A DNA stretch of 10,228 nucleotides, from the IMG/VR virus record IMGVR_UViG_2923302340_000004, positions 1-10,228 of that record. The stretch is one strand, 5' to 3'. The DNA is from a virus. Its lineage: Duplodnaviria > Heunggongvirae > Uroviricota > Caudoviricetes. The position numbers and the translations under genes were made by a program. Of this stretch, positions 2,432-9,873 are shown one piece after another. Every line of letters begins with the position of its first letter. Within the stretch, counting starts at the first letter, position 1. Under the pieces are notes generated by a model. The model saw only the letters and a list, made by a program, of their open reading frames with translations. It had not been told where the DNA came from and did not search any database.

Positions 2432-2541
2432 GGGGGAGTGATGGCACATAAAACAAAGGCGACCGCAGAGGGCCGCCAGTGGCATAACACTAAACTTGAG
2501 CATATCCAGAATACCAGGTTGTTGGCTGGTGGGCAATGCAA

Positions 2542-2715
2542 TCAGTCTGGTTCAGTTCGTTGCCATACCTGCAATGGGCGCGTTTCCCTGTACTCTTTAA
2601 GGAATTGCTCAAGGGCAAAAGCACATGGCGCGAATCTTTCTGATTCATGCTCTATCTTTCTGCGCCGTCTTTTCCGTGCCGGTGATAATGTTTTGGTCAA
2701 TTCTTTATCGGTCAT
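2542..2715 (-). CDS. Small basic hypothetical protein (uncertain; may be non-coding)
   Basis: Minus-strand ORF downstream of the RHH gene, reading MTDKELTKTLSPARKRRRRKIEHESERFAPCAFALEQFLKEYRETRPLQVWQRTEPD. AGGA lies 8 nt upstream of the internal ATG; the alternative ATG at 2730 has no SD. Many rare Arg codons (AGA, CGG, AGG). A same-region + strand frame is also open, so the coding strand is not settled. Confidence 0.3.
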   Translation of the reverse strand: MTDKELTKTLSPARKRRRRKIEHESERFAPCAFALEQFLKEYRETRPLQVWQRTEPD

Positions 2716-2772
2716 TGTGTTGTCCTGCATAGCAATGCGCCGTAGTTACTCACACCACGGCGCTGGTGATGG

Positions 2773-2952
2773 TTACTCCTGCTCTTTGGCCTTGCGGCGC
2801 TGGCGGCGTTTGATCTCGCCTTTAACGGCAGTAACTATAAATTGCGCCTTGCTTTCACCTTCATCTAAATTTTTTTCTAAGTCTGCAACAACATCATGCG
2901 GGAATCTGGCATTTAACTGTTGCGACTTATTATTTGTTGAACCTGTTGCCAT
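2773..2952 (-). CDS. Ribbon-helix-helix (Arc/MetJ/CopG-like) small DNA-binding protein, putative transcriptional repressor
   Basis: 59-aa product MATGSTNNKSQQLNARFPHDVVADLEKNLDEGESKAQFIVTAVKGEIKRRQRRKAKEQE. Layout is beta-strand (QQLNARFP), helix A, G-x-S turn (GES), helix B, basic tail, which is the classical RHH pattern. ATG at 2952-2950 is preceded by a strong SD (GAGAGGA) 7 nt upstream. The longer ORF-track version (to 3126) has an implausible N-terminal extension covering the promoter. Confidence 0.6.
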   Translation of the reverse strand: MATGSTNNKSQQLNARFPHDVVADLEKNLDEGESKAQFIVTAVKGEIKRRQRRKAKEQE

Positions 2953-3142
2953 TACTGAATCCTCTCTAAGTTGGTGCGATTCAGTATACACAAAAAAAAT
3001 TTCAGAGAAAGGCTTGAAGTGCGATTCACTTTCTGATAGGTTAAAAACGAATGGTGCGATGCACCAAGCAACAACGCCCCGCAGTGGTGGCACACATGCA
3101 GGGCGTCTAACCACCAACGATAGCAACAGTATCGAGGCAGCT
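2953..3142. promoter_or_regulatory. Divergent control region between the RHH gene (-) and the icd-like gene (+), with repeated GTGCGAT operator-like motifs
   Basis: GGTGCGATTCAG at 2973-2984, AGTGCGATTCAC at 3018-3029, and the palindromic GGTGCGATGCACC at 3053-3065. A -10-like TATACT (minus strand, plus coordinates 2983-2988) overlaps the first repeat, just upstream of the RHH SD. Confidence 0.4.
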
Positions 3143-3346
3143 ATGAGAAATTATACCAGACACCCGCAAGGGCGGGACTCGTACAACCTGAATAAATACA
3201 TCTGGCGTTTTATCGCCCTGAGCACGGCACAACCGCGCGTGATTACCATTGAGGCCACCAGCGAACAGGAAGCGCGTCAGCAATCTCCGGCTGGCTGCGT
3301 GATGGTATTCGCCGCCCGTATTCGTCAGGGGGTGTGCCATGCCTGA
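3143..3346 (+). CDS. Icd-like small protein (host cell division inhibitor Icd-like family), tentative
   Basis: 67-aa product MRNYTRHPQGRDSYNLNKYIWRFIALSTAQPRVITIEATSEQEARQQSPAGCVMVFAARIRQGVCHA. The YIW-F-A ... IEA-SE-EAR ... FAAR pattern resembles the short Icd-like proteins annotated in P4-like elements. GAGG lies 7 nt upstream of ATG 3143. The upstream in-frame extension of the ORF track (from 2438) looks non-coding. Confidence 0.55.
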   Translation: MRNYTRHPQGRDSYNLNKYIWRFIALSTAQPRVITIEATSEQEARQQSPAGCVMVFAARIRQGVCHA

Positions 3347-3659
3347 TATGTCAAATTACCAGTACCTGATTAATCCGCATTTTAACTGTGAGCATGATAT
3401 TGCTAAAAAGGTTTATTCCGCTGCTGATGAGGCTACTGACAATATATCAATGGCTGTTGCGTCAATTGGTAGCCTGATGTGGCATGCGTCAGAAAATGAG
3501 GACTATGACGAAAAGGCCATGCGCATTGATATGGGTAATATCGGTTTGTTACTGGCAATGCTTGGGCGGTTTGATATTTCGTTACGGTGCACCATTGAAA
3601 ATGCCACAGATGCATTAAATGCCATAAAGAAAGCGAATACTGATTCAAATCGGGGATAA
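3339..3659 (+). CDS. Hypothetical protein
   Basis: 106-aa ORF. Its ATG overlaps the icd-like stop (ATGCCTGA), suggesting translational coupling. A G-rich SD-like stretch lies upstream. Acidic protein with no recognisable motif. Confidence 0.55.
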   Translation: MPDMSNYQYLINPHFNCEHDIAKKVYSAADEATDNISMAVASIGSLMWHASENEDYDEKAMRIDMGNIGLLLAMLGRFDISLRCTIENATDALNAIKKANTDSNRG

Positions 3660-3665
3660 ATAATC

Positions 3666-3965
3666 ATGAGAACATATTTATCTGGCTTGACTGCCAGCGG
3701 TTATGCACACCCCAAAATTATCCCCGGCGCTATTTATCTGGATAAGAACGGTAACAGAGTAACGGTAAAAGAACTGATGTTTGACCGTGTGTATTTTATT
3801 CGTGATGGCTATTCATTTCATAGTTCGCTGAACGTGGAGATCTTTATTAGCAGATTCCGGCGGGAAATCCCGACTTCCAGAAATAACCATGTGTCACGTG
3901 TGGATGTGGATAAAAAACTGCAGGAACTGAAAAACATGATTGCCGCGTGGAGAGAGCCGAAATGA
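3666..3965 (+). CDS. Hypothetical protein (small, precedes the primase)
   Basis: 99-aa ORF. GGGGA SD lies 9 nt upstream of ATG 3666. Its stop TGA (3963-3965) overlaps the primase ATG (3962) as ATGA. No motif confidently assigned. Confidence 0.55.
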   Translation: MRTYLSGLTASGYAHPKIIPGAIYLDKNGNRVTVKELMFDRVYFIRDGYSFHSSLNVEIFISRFRREIPTSRNNHVSRVDVDKKLQELKNMIAAWREPK

Positions 3966-6085
3966 AAAAAGCGCCAAATTTAAAACACCAGCCGCGTGAC
4001 AAAATGACGGAAGTCATCATTTTTGCGGGTAGTGATGCGTGGGCACATGCGAAGCAGTGGCAGGAACAGGACGGGCGACTGGCTGGCGATAACGTGCCTC
4101 CTGTCTGGCTTGGAGAGCAACAACTTGCCGAACTGGACAACCTGCAAATCGTACCGGACGGACGCTATCGCGTGCGTCTCTATCAGGCGGGGTTATTGCG
4201 TCCGGGGCTTGTTAATACCATCGGGCAGAAACTGGCAGCGGCAGGTGTCAGGGATGCTGATTATTACCCTGAAGGAATGCACAGCCAGAAACGGGAGAAC
4301 TGGCGCGAATATCTGGAACGTGAACGGGCAGAGCAGGCGGAAAAGAAAAAGGTAGTTGAACTGCCTGTAAAGAAAAAAGAGCCATGCTATCAGGATGATG
4401 AATTAAAGCCCCGCGTTGAAAGTCGCGTCGATGGTGTTTTCTGGGTAACGCCCAAAGTGGATAAGCAGTCAGGCGAAATTATCCGGCCTGAGACGTGGTT
4501 ATGTTCTCCGCTTGAACTACTGGGAACGGGGACGATCGGTAAAGAGCATTACCGCGTGATGCGCTGGAAAAAATTAGCAAACCATGAAGTCATCACAATG
4601 GCGATCCCGTGTGGTGGCATTGGCGACCGTGACGGCTGGCGGTTGCTTAAAGATCACGGGCTGAACGTGACAACAAACGGCAAATACAGGGCTATCCTGG
4701 CTGACTGGATGCAGTTAAGCGGAAGCCATGAGGAATGGCAGCTAAGCACAACAACGGGCTGGCATTTTGGCGCGTATATCATGCCGGACGGCTCAATCAT
4801 TGGTGATTCTGAAAAACCGATCCTGTTTACCGGAAAAAGTGCCGCTGTTAATGGCTATTCGGTTGCGGGTACGGCGGAGGGCTGGCGCGACTGCGTGGCG
4901 CGGCTGGCTGGTGGCAATCCGTCCATGATGCTGGGTGTTGCCACGTCACTGGCAGCACCTTTGATTGGCCTTGTTGGTGCTGACGGCTTCGGGGTACATC
5001 TTTTCGAACAGTCATCGGCAGGGAAAACCACCACGCAGAACATCGCATCCAGTTTATGGGGAGAGCCGGACGCACAACGGCTGACCTGGTACGGCACAGC
5101 GTTAGGTATCGCTAACGAGGCAGAGGCGCACAACGACGGGCTGTTACCCCTGGATGAAATAGGCCAGGCCGGAAACGCGCGGGAGGTGTCCACGTCAGCC
5201 TATACGTTGTTTAACGGTTCCGGGAAATTACAGGGGGCGAAGGACGGCGGCAACCGGGAGATAAAACACTGGCGCACGGTGGCAATCAGCACCGGAGAAA
5301 TGGACGTTGAGACATTCCTCAAAACGGAGGGGATAAAAGTCAAAGCGGGGCAGCTTGTCCGCCTGCTTAACGTTCCGATGGAAAAAGCCACGCACTTTCA
5401 CGAATACAGCACCGGAAAGGCGCACGCAGACGCGTTAAAGGATGCCTGGACAGAAAATCACGGGGCAGCGGGTCGTGAGTGGGTTAAATGGCTGGCAGGC
5501 CACCAGCAGGAGGCAAAGGATACGGTAAGGGAATGCCGCGAACGGTGGCGCAACCTGATACCGGAGAGCTACGGCGAGCAGGTCCACCGCGTGGGTGAGC
5601 GTTTCGCCATACTGGAGGCCGCGCTTGTGCTTTCCGGTCATGTAACTGGCTGGGCCGCGCAGGAATGCCGGGACGCAATACAGCATAACTTTAATGCCTG
5701 GGTGAAGGAGTTCGGCACGGGTAACAGGGAATTTAAACAGATGGTTGAACAGGCTGAGGCGTTTTTGTCGTCGTTCGGGTTCAGTCGATACCTTCCTTAC
5801 CCAAACAGTGATGAACGTGATTTACCGATTAAAGACCTTGCCGGATACAGAAAGGGGAGTATCAGAAATGAAGATGATGAGTTCCGTTTTTACACGTTTC
5901 CTCATGTGTTTGAGGGGGAGATCGCACAGGGATTTAACCCGTCCCACTTTGCCCGCGCGTTGAGTGCTGCCGGAATGCTGGAAGCGGGTAACGATCGCCG
6001 TTACAAGAAAAAGGCTCTCGGCAAAATTGGGGGGAAGCAGCATGTTTTTTACGTGCTGATGTTCCAGCCTGAGGCAGAAGATTAA
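3962..6085 (+). CDS. Replication protein: primase/helicase-like with a central P-loop NTPase domain (PICI Pri-Rep / P4 alpha-like role)
   Basis: ~708-aa ORF. ATG 3962 is preceded by GAGAG and overlaps the upstream stop; the ORF-track start is a GTG at 3947. Walker A-like FEQSSAGKTTTQ and Walker B-like GLLPLDEIGQ lie in the middle of the protein. Its size and position immediately upstream of an iteron array are typical of satellite/plasmid primase-helicases (DUF927-like). The family name is from memory. Confidence 0.8.
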   Translation: MKKAPNLKHQPRDKMTEVIIFAGSDAWAHAKQWQEQDGRLAGDNVPPVWLGEQQLAELDNLQIVPDGRYRVRLYQAGLLRPGLVNTIGQKLAAAGVRDADYYPEGMHSQKRENWREYLERERAEQAEKKKVVELPVKKKEPCYQDDELKPRVESRVDGVFWVTPKVDKQSGEIIRPETWLCSPLELLGTGTIGKEHYRVMRWKKLANHEVITMAIPCGGIGDRDGWRLLKDHGLNVTTNGKYRAILADWMQLSGSHEEWQLSTTTGWHFGAYIMPDGSIIGDSEKPILFTGKSAAVNGYSVAGTAEGWRDCVARLAGGNPSMMLGVATSLAAPLIGLVGADGFGVHLFEQSSAGKTTTQNIASSLWGEPDAQRLTWYGTALGIANEAEAHNDGLLPLDEIGQAGNAREVSTSAYTLFNGSGKLQGAKDGGNREIKHWRTVAISTGEMDVETFLKTEGIKVKAGQLVRLLNVPMEKATHFHEYSTGKAHADALKDAWTENHGAAGREWVKWLAGHQQEAKDTVRECRERWRNLIPESYGEQVHRVGERFAILEAALVLSGHVTGWAAQECRDAIQHNFNAWVKEFGTGNREFKQMVEQAEAFLSSFGFSRYLPYPNSDERDLPIKDLAGYRKGSIRNEDDEFRFYTFPHVFEGEIAQGFNPSHFARALSAAGMLEAGNDRRYKKKALGKIGGKQHVFYVLMFQPEAED

Positions 6086-6116: not shown

Positions 6117-6424
6117 TGCGGGTTACTATGTGTATAAGTGCATTAACTGCATGAATAAAAAGGAAATCAATAACCCGCACGTAACCCGCAAAACGGCAGT
6201 TATAACCCGCAAAAGTGCGATTATAACCCGCAGATGAATAACAGGAAGTGACAGCAAACAGCCACGCGTAACCCGCAGAAAAAACCCCGTTTGCGGGTTA
6301 TTTTGAGCATTTTGCGGGTTACGCCACGGCTAAACAGTAAACAGTTAATTTTGTAATGTATTGATATTAAGGAATAAAAAATACTTAGCAAGCGAAGATA
6401 ACCCGCTAACCCGCATAACCCGCA
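6117..6424. repeat. Iteron array, putative origin of replication of the element
   Basis: At least 11 copies of the 9-bp motif TAACCCGCA in both orientations. Forward copies at 6171, 6182, 6203, 6224, 6269, 6407 and 6416, plus variant TAACCCGCT at 6399. Reverse copies TGCGGGTTA at 6117, 6292 and 6313. Several spacings are 11 or 21 bp (helical phasing). An AT-rich stretch (about 6330-6395) and TATATATATA (about 6433-6442) lie within and beside the array. Located directly 3' of the primase gene. Confidence 0.7.
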
Positions 6425-6463
6425 CTGTTTTGTATATATATACGAAAAATTGAGATCTGAACT

Positions 6464-6706
6464 ATGAAGGCAAACCGCAAACAACCACACTACCGCGCTA
6501 TTGACCTTACAGAGCACTGGCTGAGAGTGGCGATAAAAATCATCGACCGAAACACGGGGGAAGGATATGCAAAAGCACATCCCGAACTGATAAGCGCATT
6601 CATGACAACGGCAGCTGCAAACTTTGCCACGTTGACAGAACGGGAGATTGCCGAAGCGGAACAGGTGACAACCATCAACGTTAAAACCGGAGAGCAGATA
6701 GCATGA
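6464..6706 (+). CDS. Hypothetical protein
   Basis: 80-aa ORF immediately after the iteron region. Its stop overlaps the SSB-like start (ATGA). Weak SD; function unknown. Confidence 0.45.
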   Translation: MKANRKQPHYRAIDLTEHWLRVAIKIIDRNTGEGYAKAHPELISAFMTTAAANFATLTEREIAEAEQVTTINVKTGEQIA

Positions 6707-7125
6707 CAGCACAGATAGCGGCTTACGGACGGCTGGTGGCTGACCCGCAGTTAAAGACCACCAGCAAGGGTACACAAATGGCGATGGCTAGTATGGCGGT
6801 CCCCCTTCCGTGCAGCCAGGCAGATGACGGAACGGCGATGATGTGGTTATCCGTCCTGGCGTTTGGCAGACAGGCCGACGCACTGGCAAAACACCACAAA
6901 GGCGAACTGGTGAGCGTGGCGGGTAACATGCAGGTAAGCCAGTGGACAGGCCAGAACGGCGAAACGCGGCAGGGCTGGCAGGTTATCGCAGACAGCGTGA
7001 TCAGTGCGCGAACAGCGCGACCGGGCGGCAAAAAAGGCCAGCAGGGGCAGGCCACTGACGCATTGAACAGGGCAAAACAACAGTCGGGGAATGATGATCC
7101 GTACGGCGATAATATACCGTTTTAA
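6703..7125 (+). CDS. ssb: Single-stranded DNA-binding protein (SSB-like, short form)
   Basis: 140 aa. OB-fold region aligns by eye to E. coli SSB: GRLVADPQLK...MAMASMAV against GNLGQDPEVR...VANITLAT, W..V.AFG..A..LAKHHKGELVSVAGNMQVSQWTGQNGETRQ against [43 protein letters not shown]. Gly/Gln-rich linker and acidic C-terminal tail DDPYGDNIPF (SSB ends in DDDIPF). GGAGAG SD lies 8 nt upstream. Confidence 0.75.
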   Translation: MTAQIAAYGRLVADPQLKTTSKGTQMAMASMAVPLPCSQADDGTAMMWLSVLAFGRQADALAKHHKGELVSVAGNMQVSQWTGQNGETRQGWQVIADSVISARTARPGGKKGQQGQATDALNRAKQQSGNDDPYGDNIPF

Positions 7126-8745: not shown

Positions 8746-9129
8746 ATGCAGAATCATTACAATGACCTTAAGCCAATTGCCGAAATGATGTATCCGGATC
8801 CAGCAGTAGAGGAATTAAAGGCTATTGCTGACAAAATGCGTTTAAGTGAACGCCTTGTTGATATGAATCAGGTGATGGAACTTACTACCCTTAGCCGTCG
8901 CACATTGCTAAACCTTGAGGCTCGCGGAGAGTTCCCCGAACGCGTACAGGTTACGGAAGGGCGTAAGGCCTGGTATTTAAGTGAAGTGATCGACTGGATA
9001 AACAATATTCCTCGAGCTTCTGAATATTGCCGCGTACCTGTCCCAAAAAAGCCAGATGCGGCGCTATGCCTCAAGATTGAGCGTGTACGCCGCAATGCAT
9101 GGGATGGTCGCTATAAGCTGATTGGTTGA
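8746..9129 (+). CDS. Second AlpA-like / excisionase-type HTH protein with N- and C-terminal extensions
   Basis: 127 aa. Central segment VDMNQVMELTTLSRRTLLNLEARGEFPERVQVTEGRKAWYLSEVIDWINN matches the AlpA/HTH_17 signature (TGLSRSTIYRL...G.FP.P...G.R...W...E...W). SD TAAAGGGGGA is coupled to the gpD-like stop. Lies immediately upstream of the cos site. Confidence 0.65.
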   Translation: MQNHYNDLKPIAEMMYPDPAVEELKAIADKMRLSERLVDMNQVMELTTLSRRTLLNLEARGEFPERVQVTEGRKAWYLSEVIDWINNIPRASEYCRVPVPKKPDAALCLKIERVRRNAWDGRYKLIG

Positions 9130-9182: not shown

Positions 9183-9230
9183 ACGGGGCGGCGACCTTGC
9201 GGATTTTCGCTATTTATGAGCCTTTTCGGG
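9183..9230. other. cos site: lambda-type cosN (12-nt cohesive-end sequence GGGCGGCGACCT at 9186-9197) with flanking sequence, followed by a divergent cosB-like region
   Basis: ACGGGGCGGCGACCTTGCGGATTTTCGCTATTTATGAGCCTTTTCGGG is near-identical over ~35 nt to the lambda left end GGGCGGCGACCTCGCGGGTTTTCGCTATTTATGAAAATTTTCCGG (from memory). It sits ~135-150 nt upstream of the Nu1-like gene, as in lambda. Sequence beyond ~9220 diverges from lambda cosB. Confidence 0.75.
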
Positions 9231-9330
9231 TTGGTGGTGGTGGTTTTGTTTTTCGCTCTATCTCTATGAATAAAAAGGGAAAGATAACACCAACACACCA
9301 ACCTGAAACCTTAACTAAGTGGGGATATTG

Positions 9331-9873
9331 ATGAAATCGCACCTGATGAACAAAAAAACTATGGCGCAAAGCTGCCGCGTAAGTGCGACAGCGTTCGACA
9401 AGTGGGGAGTAACTCCCGTTGAGCGTAAAGGCCGTGAGGCGTTTTATGATGTTGCTAGCGTGATAGACAATAGGGTTAACAATGCAATTAACCAGCTTAC
9501 AAACGACAAAGGCGAGATTGATGATGATGAACTTTTACGCGTAAGAATCAGATTAATGACGGCCCAGGCGGAAGCGCAGGAACTTAAAAACGAGCGCGAA
9601 CGCGGCGAGGTGATTGATACAAAGTTTTGCATCTACGCGATTTCAAAACTAGCGAGTCAGATTTCATCAATCATGGACAGCCTCCCGCTCACAATGCAAA
9701 GGCGCTTTCCCGATATAAAGCCGTATATGCTGGATGAACTAAAAAGGGAAATAGCCAAAGCATGTAACGCATGTGCAAGACTTGACGAAAACCTGCCACA
9801 GATACTGGCTGATTACCTGATGGAAACTACCGGAAACGCGCCTGAGAAGTTGCTAGAGAACAAAGGCGAGTAA
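9331..9873 (+). CDS. Terminase small subunit, lambda Nu1 family (satellite TerS / packaging-redirection candidate)
   Basis: RLMTAQAEAQELKNERERGEVIDTKFCIYAISKLASQISSIMDSLPLTMQRRFPDI matches lambda Nu1 RLTRAQADAQELKNARDSAEVVETAFCTFVLSRIAGEIASILDGLPLSVQRRFPEL. The N-terminus MNKKTMAQ... corresponds to the Nu1 wHTH start MEVNKKQLAD. GGGGA SD precedes ATG 9331; alternative ATG at 9346; the ORF-track start is GTG 9319. Confidence 0.85.
   Translation: MKSHLMNKKTMAQSCRVSATAFDKWGVTPVERKGREAFYDVASVIDNRVNNAINQLTNDKGEIDDDELLRVRIRLMTAQAEAQELKNERERGEVIDTKFCIYAISKLASQISSIMDSLPLTMQRRFPDIKPYMLDELKREIAKACNACARLDENLPQILADYLMETTGNAPEKLLENKGE

Follow-up and report, generated by a model that had tools for sequence, protein, structure and literature searches.

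What reads the three short repeats that lie between two divergently oriented genes of this phage-like element, and what would they switch? The window, that is, the whole stretch of 10,228 nt that was analysed, comes from a virus record assigned to the Caudoviricetes, and the region in question, nt 2953-3142, corresponded exactly to the 190-bp gap from the start codon of a leftward gene for a 59-amino-acid (59-aa) protein to the ATG of a rightward gene for an Icd-like protein. The genes of the window needed here, with their associated features, were as follows.

nt 1-1428: integrase gene
nt 2234-2431: HTH_17/excisionase-like gene, adjoining the integrase gene
nt 2542-2730, minus strand: ORF62, co-oriented with the RHH gene and 42 nt after it
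nt 2773-2952, minus strand: gene of the 59-aa YlcI/YnfO-family ribbon-helix-helix (RHH) protein, start codon CAT at nt 2950-2952
nt 2959-2966, minus strand: Shine-Dalgarno of the RHH gene, GAGAGGAT on the minus strand, read from the sequence
nt 3143-3346, plus strand: Icd-like gene, ATG at nt 3143
nt 3339-3659, plus strand: ORF106
nt 3666-3965, plus strand: DUF4222 gene (family match)
nt 3947-6085, plus strand: DUF927 primase/replicase gene (family match)
nt 3143-6085, plus strand: proposed regulated operon, from the Icd-like gene to the DUF927 primase gene
nt 8746-9129: Phage_AlpA-family gene, in the late region, before the small terminase gene
nt 9319-9873: small terminase gene

Family matches indicated that SSB, major head and head decoration proteins were also encoded in the window, the gene set of which is that of a capsid-forming phage satellite (cf-PICI-like), and that the regulator beside the integrase gene was of the HTH_17/excisionase type and not a Pfam AlpA. 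The right-hand neighbour of the gap had been called icd-like, an assignment borne out by an NCBIfam match (1.5e-19) to a family named host cell division inhibitor Icd-like protein; the same protein matched phrog_6196 (1.1e-43) and phrog_1743, both labelled transcriptional repressor. The gaps across the Icd-like, ORF106, DUF4222 and primase genes were -8, +6 and -19 nt, and a terminator scan found no terminator-like site on the plus strand among them. Since these genes overlap or lie 6 nt apart and no such site intervenes, a single icd-to-primase operon is plausible. On the opposite strand, ORF62 follows the RHH gene by 42 nt in the same orientation and is itself followed by a terminator-like hairpin with a T run (2477..2448, minus strand), which suggests a two-gene leftward transcript. 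ORF62 carried a KRRRRK stretch, had no family match in Pfam or NCBIfam, and among the relatives was present only in E. coli loci. Elsewhere in the window, a near-perfect long inverted repeat at nt 9223-9309, between the AlpA-family gene and the small terminase gene, gave a false 'mir-3910' match on both strands in the Rfam search and could be a packaging or regulatory site.

When the 10,228 bases were scanned for GTGCGATKCAS with at most one mismatch, exactly three matches were obtained, all on the plus strand, versus 0.61 expected for the whole window. They are designated here as O1, O2 and O3, with positions given relative to the putative leftward (P_L) and rightward (P_R) promoters described below.

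O1, nt 2974-2984: GTGCGATTCAG, proposed autoregulatory site, at about -8 to +3 of the putative P_L
O2, nt 3019-3029: GTGCGATTCAC, on the last -35 base and the promoter spacer, at about -30 to -20 of the putative P_R
O3, nt 3053-3065: palindrome GGTGCGATGCACC, at about +5 to +17 of the putative P_R

The third copy of the pattern, GTGCGATGCAC at nt 3054-3064, was located inside the palindrome of O3, which was the sole GGTG-N5-CACC in the window. A repeat finder also grouped these three copies into one family, spaced 45 and 35 bp apart, and in a pattern-free test, in which the 190-bp region contained 3 non-overlapping copies of a 10-mer with at most one mismatch, none of 500 shuffles reached 3. 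The three copies of GTGCGAT(T/G)CA(C/G), one of them in a palindrome, that the preliminary description had reported were thus confirmed by pattern scan, repeat finder and 500 shuffles, and no operator copies above chance were found elsewhere in the window. Two other signals in the region were discarded: a minus-strand terminator-like match (3066..3042) was read as a by-product of the O3 palindrome and the AT-rich -10 region, and an inverted repeat (nt 2943-2952 and 3120-3129) was attributed to chance and was not conserved in relatives. In the window the O3 palindrome itself can fold; in most relatives O3 was not a hairpin with a following T run.

A megablast search with nt 2700-3400 retrieved the YlcI/YnfO and Icd-like gene pair from many complete E. 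coli genomes, in which often only both genes, and not the spacer, were aligned. The comparison set consisted of 57 related loci, 4 from E. coli and 53 from other Enterobacterales, and the same architecture was observed in Citrobacter, Pectobacterium, Yersinia, Xenorhabdus, Serratia, Klebsiella, Gilliamella and others; tblastn of the 59-aa protein against 50,697 phage genomes gave zero matches. From left to right, the shared layout comprised the start codon of the small gene, about 20 nt with its ribosome-binding site, GGTG-N5-CA fused to GTATAC, an A-rich stretch, TTGA(A/C)G followed directly by GTG-N5-CAC, TAnnnT 17-18 bp after the TTGA hexamer, a third site that was often GGTG-N5-CACC, a hairpin, TCTAACCAC, a second hairpin, and the start of the Icd-like gene. 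Over the 57 loci, O1 abutted a conserved TATACT, O2 lay in the spacer of P_R, and O3 was at or just after the P_R -10. The O1-O2 spacing was 44-47 bp in 47 of the 53 scored loci (the other six include mis-anchored sites), and that of O2-O3 fell into classes of 22-25 or 35 bp; O3 may be inverted relative to O2, as in GTGTATTTCAC and GTGAAATACAC, and in most relatives O1 was more degenerate than O2 and O3. In related elements the motif was kept in part: the site layout and the GTG/CAC flanks were retained, whereas the five central bases differed and fell into 18 classes.

Several relatives departed from this layout. The ylcI gene of E. coli K-12 (L058, DLP12, nt 6252-6834), namesake of the family, was considered as the same switch and rejected, being without the three-site architecture; it is divergent from nohD beside a lambda-like cos region and belongs to a subfamily with an 'IDASVEQEK'-type insert that is also found in L003 and L050-L055. 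In two Xenorhabdus loci (L040 and L057), O1 ran straight into the end of O3 (GGTGGCTGGCACC...) and the promoter region between them was missing; these look like products of a deletion between operator repeats, and the copies are probably defective. In L008, L015, L019, L032-L038 and others, the CACC end of O3 opened a palindrome, CACCTTGA...TCAAGGTG, which sits at the 5' end of the predicted transcript and is absent from the window.

The two putative promoters were located in the gap as follows.

nt 3006-3011, minus strand: candidate -35 of P_L, CTTTCT (poor)
nt 2983-2988, minus strand: putative -10 of P_L, TATACT, overlapping O1 by two bases
nt 3014-3019, plus strand: putative -35 of P_R, TTGAAG
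nt 3037-3042, plus strand: putative -10 of P_R, TAGGTT (weak consensus match in the window)
near nt 3049, plus strand: putative P_R transcription start

Neither P_L nor P_R was called by a simple consensus promoter scan of the window, in which P_R matched 7 of 12 sigma-70 consensus positions, so that both assignments rest on conservation in relatives. For P_L, CAGTATAC, whose distance from the RHH start codon was fixed, was retained in 14 specificity classes. For P_R, the rule TTG[AT]NN, 16-18 bp, TANNNT held in 52 of 54 loci, the -35 being at a near-fixed distance from the RHH start (61 nt in most loci) and the spacer mostly 17-18 bp. The conserved columns over the 14 classes were GGTG, CAGTATAC, an A run, TTGA, GTG and CAC, while five in-site bases varied, and in several classes (TATAGTGGAGCACACC) O3 overlapped the P_R -10 itself. 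The overlap of the repeats with a -10-like element of the RHH gene, suggested earlier, was seen as the two bases that O1 shares with TATACT, an element conserved in relatives, and their placement in a divergent promoter region was upheld by the positions of the sites on conserved divergent promoter elements. Relative to the putative -35, -10 and +1 positions, O1 to O3 are placed as the sites of a repressor are.

Downstream of O3, the presumed rightward transcript would begin with a structured leader.

nt 3075-3134, plus strand: conserved leader, with hairpin 1 (nt 3075-3105), single-stranded TCTAACCACCAA (nt 3106-3117) and hairpin 2 (nt 3118-3134)

Over 47 loci, 91% of cells were paired in this leader versus 26-45% in slid controls, compensatory changes were present in 12 of 16 pairs, and 0 of 500 shuffles reached the observed values. 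Searches of Rfam with the whole window (E up to 1) and with nt 2940-3160 (E up to 10) returned only noise and no match for the leader. Antisense-RNA immunity of the c4/CI type (P1, P7, P4) was also considered and rejected, no Rfam C4 or isrK match being obtained in the window or in nt 2940-3160. Hairpin 2 adjoins or takes in the ribosome-binding site and may therefore govern how the message of the Icd-like gene is translated or how stable it is.

The 59-aa protein scored 63.3 bits (cutoff 30; E 1.5e-17) with NCBIfam YlcI_YnfO_N (NF041551; DUF3950), in keeping with near-identical E. coli genes annotated YlcI/YnfO, and matched PHROG 949, a family of no assigned function; the family is small, with 99 representatives at 50% identity. 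The non-subscription literature covered yielded no functional study of YlcI, YnfO or DUF3950. The protein had no Pfam match, a profile search of PDB sequences returned no solved relative of it, and distant members had weak Pfam matches to RHH-clan families only (PSK_trans_fac, 2.9e-4; Arc, 3.2e-4; RHH_1, 2.9e-3), those to CB_ParB_C and TacA1 being also among them. A first model built from a shallow alignment was poor, and fold searches from it were uninformative. The predicted structure possessed a beta strand at about residues 11-17 (QQLNARF), helix A at 19-27, a G32-E33-S34 turn, helix B at 35-58 and a basic tail, its N-terminal strand and two helices having the geometry of solved RHH chains. 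In RHH proteins helix B starts with a G-x-S/T/N turn motif, and the GES turn was conserved in the family alignments. Thus, the designation of the neighbouring gene as RHH stood, on the strand, the two helices and the turn. The best structural match was an antitoxin DNA-binding domain (6iya), several further matches also being antitoxins, and identity to Arc was 29% over 45 aligned residues. In an hhalign comparison with Arc (E 7.9e-4, probability 25%), KSQQLNARFPHDVV was aligned with Arc SKMPQFNLRWPREVL, which places residues 12, 14 and 16 on Gln9, Asn11 and Arg13 of the Arc strand motif; residues 12 and 14 varied with the operator and R16 was invariant. Forms of about 100 aa occurred in L002, L029, L033 and L044, in which about 42 additional aa separate the RRQ and RRK motifs of helix B; by analogy with Mnt, this insert could be an oligomerisation module.

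Operators of 53 loci were grouped by O2 with at most one mismatch, giving 18 classes; this class-based analysis replaced Mantel correlations of whole 11-mers, in which the invariant GTG/CAC bases and ancestry shared with the spacer DNA blurred the picture. O1 and O3 differed from the O2 of their own locus by a median of 3 mismatches (summed) versus 8 from the O2 of other strand types, and within classes the distance was 0.15 for operators versus 0.37 for flanking spacers. Over the 53 loci, the adjusted mutual information (AMI) between operator class and residues 11-17 of the small protein was 0.95, and that with residues 12 and 14 alone was 0.98, whereas values were at most 0.15 for residues 18-50, at most 0.04 for the Icd-like protein and at most 0.125 for the upstream HTH/AlpA protein. 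Operator class did not track replicase type either, one class occurring with primase-type, DUF927-type and RepA-type replicases. Strands (residues 11-16) and the operators found with them include the following.

QQLNAR (the window): GTGCGATTCAC
KQVNVR (same Q12/N14): GTGCTATGCAC
QMTTVR: GTGTATTTCAC
QLTTVR: GTGTGTTTCA
KKLEAR: GTGGCTGACAC
QKMQAR: GTGGAGCACAC
QTVAAR: GTGTTYAACAC
QKIHAR: GTGGAACAC
QSVTVR: TGTAAGACAC

One pair was exceptional, in that the KTSV and RFDV strands differ yet have similar operators (GTGTCCGACA). Physical linkage could account for part of the association, given the short distance (about 60-75 bp) between the strand codons and O1; against this, the next 33 codons of the same gene (residues 18-50) showed almost no association.

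This co-variation bears directly on which protein the repeats serve. It is very unlikely that they are bound by the HTH/AlpA-type regulator of the element (nt 2234-2431, or AlpA at nt 8746-9129), a type that activates early genes in Gram-negative PICIs, although AlpA is the only regulator experimentally shown in Gram-negative PICIs and cf-PICIs (PMC6092414; bioRxiv 10.1101/2022.09.08.507074) and the HTH_17/excisionase-like gene stands 340 bp to the left. The upstream HTH type did not track operator class (AMI at most 0.125), the GTGTATTTCAC class occurred with at least five HTH types, HTH proteins of the window type (70-75% identical) occurred with four operator classes, and a -35/-10 spacer and +5 to +17 are not activator positions. 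Least credible of all is a reading of the repeats as targets of the Icd-like protein, as its matches to phrog_6196 and phrog_1743 as transcriptional repressor might suggest, or as replication-origin iterons read by the replicase, a role open to repeats in the vicinity of replication genes. Icd-like proteins about 90% identical (the window and L001-L004) stand beside five operator classes (AMI at most 0.04), a single operator class is combined with primase-, DUF927- and RepA-type replicases, and there are three copies only, all on promoter elements; in EcCICFT073 the replication origin maps downstream of rep (PMC6092414). The HTH/AlpA, Icd-like and iteron readings are thus contradicted by their lack of co-variation with operator class.

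Two further readings leave the sites to the RHH protein and give it another role. That it activates the rightward operon, regulates it in both directions, or regulates only itself appears unlikely. Some RHH proteins, e.g. AmrZ, activate as well as repress, and the assignments of P_R and P_L on which the direction depends are putative; but O2 lies in the promoter spacer and O3 in the early transcribed region in essentially all loci, O3 even overlapping the -10 in several classes, and such positions are typical of steric repression and argue against an activator. It is highly improbable that ORF62 and the RHH protein form a type II toxin-antitoxin pair, the latter being the antitoxin and the repeats merely the autoregulatory operator of that pair. 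The antitoxin domain 6iya and several other antitoxins among its structural matches, together with ORF62 at 42 nt after the RHH gene and the terminator-like site beyond it, would fit a pair of this kind, but ORF62 is confined to E. coli loci and without a family match, two of the three sites lie on the divergent promoter and not on that of the RHH gene, and over 58 loci no conserved co-oriented gene was found downstream of the RHH gene, about half having none. For want of a conserved downstream partner, the toxin-antitoxin reading fails. In L008, a 94-aa ORF starting MKITFDPGKDRINQNKHGYS follows the RHH gene and may resemble BrnT-type toxins.

The three 11-13 bp sites are, on this comparison, very probably operators of the adjacent RHH protein, and it is likely that the GTG-N5-CAC sites serve the 59-aa Arc/Mnt-like protein as a repressor of both the icd-to-primase operon and its own gene. 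From sequence and its conservation we infer that the protein binds, where P_L and P_R and their starts lie, which way control runs and that the gene regulates itself. The RHH dimer would put a two-stranded beta sheet (residues about 11-17) into the major groove at the five central bases that vary. Residues 12 and 14, the counterparts of Gln9 and Asn11 of Arc, are those that differ between specificity classes; the invariant GTG/CAC flanks would be read by invariant residues of the protein. Occupancy of O2, in the -35/-10 spacer, and of O3, at +5 to +17, would block P_R and keep the operon of the Icd-like, ORF106, DUF4222 and primase genes silent, so that satellite replication would be off, while occupancy of the presumably weaker O1, over the -10 and +1 of P_L, would limit synthesis of the repressor itself. 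Repression might be lifted by a protein of the helper phage, by AlpA/HTH-driven events or through dilution. The earlier reading of the region as a switch autoregulated by the RHH protein was largely supported by comparison.

AlpA has been described as the activator of Gram-negative PICIs and cf-PICIs, and the published induction model for the former needs AlpA only (PMC6092414; bioRxiv 10.1101/2022.09.08.507074). The global repressor of Gram-negative PICIs has been called unclear (PMC6092414), repression is not mentioned in the cf-PICI preprint (bioRxiv 10.1101/2022.09.08.507074), and no repressor was reported for Gram-negative PICIs or cf-PICIs in the non-subscription literature searched. More tentatively, and with the balance of likelihood somewhat against it, the YlcI/YnfO RHH protein could fill the vacant place of master repressor in many Gram-negative PICIs and cf-PICIs, as a functional counterpart of Stl, with the classes, at least 18, as immunity groups and with helper-dependent inactivation or bypass. 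Were this so, the immunity groups would let co-resident satellites be controlled independently, AlpA would act upstream of, or parallel to, the helper-dependent inactivation or bypass of the RHH repressor, and the two-residue code (12 and 14) would provide naturally orthogonal mini-repressors. The switch is of interest since a widespread satellite module thereby gains a candidate repressor and a recognition code: the candidate, its three putative operators and the promoter that it would close can now be named for a module found across Enterobacterales, and a probable function is assigned to the uncharacterised YlcI/YnfO (DUF3950) family. The predicted recognition rule, which relates residues 12 and 14 to the five central operator bases, is open to mutagenesis, and the predicted orthogonality of the classes could serve synthetic circuits.

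The closest known system is the immI region of P22, with Mnt and Arc at the divergent Pant and Pmnt promoters. In both, a small Arc-like RHH gene is divergent from the operon that it controls or, in the satellite, would control, the strand motif Q-x-N-x-R-[FW]-P is shared by the satellite protein and Arc, and operators occupy the -35/-10 spacer and the start region of the regulated promoter as well as the promoter of the regulator, those promoters being putative in the satellite; the operator placement of Arc at Pant parallels that of the satellite sites. Unlike P22, which has one operator of 17-21 bp per protein, two RHH genes, and an operon of arc and the antirepressor gene ant, the satellite has three separate sites of 11-13 bp, one RHH gene, and a cargo of Icd-like and replication genes, and the tetramerisation domain of Mnt is absent from the 59-aa form, although variants of about 100 aa with an insert exist in relatives. 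The plasmid RHH repressors omega (pSM19035; 7-bp heptads) and CopG (pMV158; 13-bp element) likewise read short repeated sub-sites, whereas the satellite sites are not contiguous but 22-45 bp apart, with a fixed O1-O2 spacing, and the specificity of the satellite family has diversified into at least 18 classes. With Stl/Rpr of Gram-positive PICIs (SaPIs), the satellite shares a divergent repressor gene between the integrase side and the replication operon (PMC6092414) and the presumed role of holding the island silent, proposed for its RHH protein from the architecture; in contrast to the 59-aa RHH fold, those repressors are larger and of the HTH type, and derepression by a helper protein has been shown for Stl. 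The immunity RNAs c4 of P1 and CI of P4 resemble the present case in a control region directly upstream of an Icd-like first gene of the early operon and in a structured leader, whereas control in the satellite would be exerted by a protein at the promoter.
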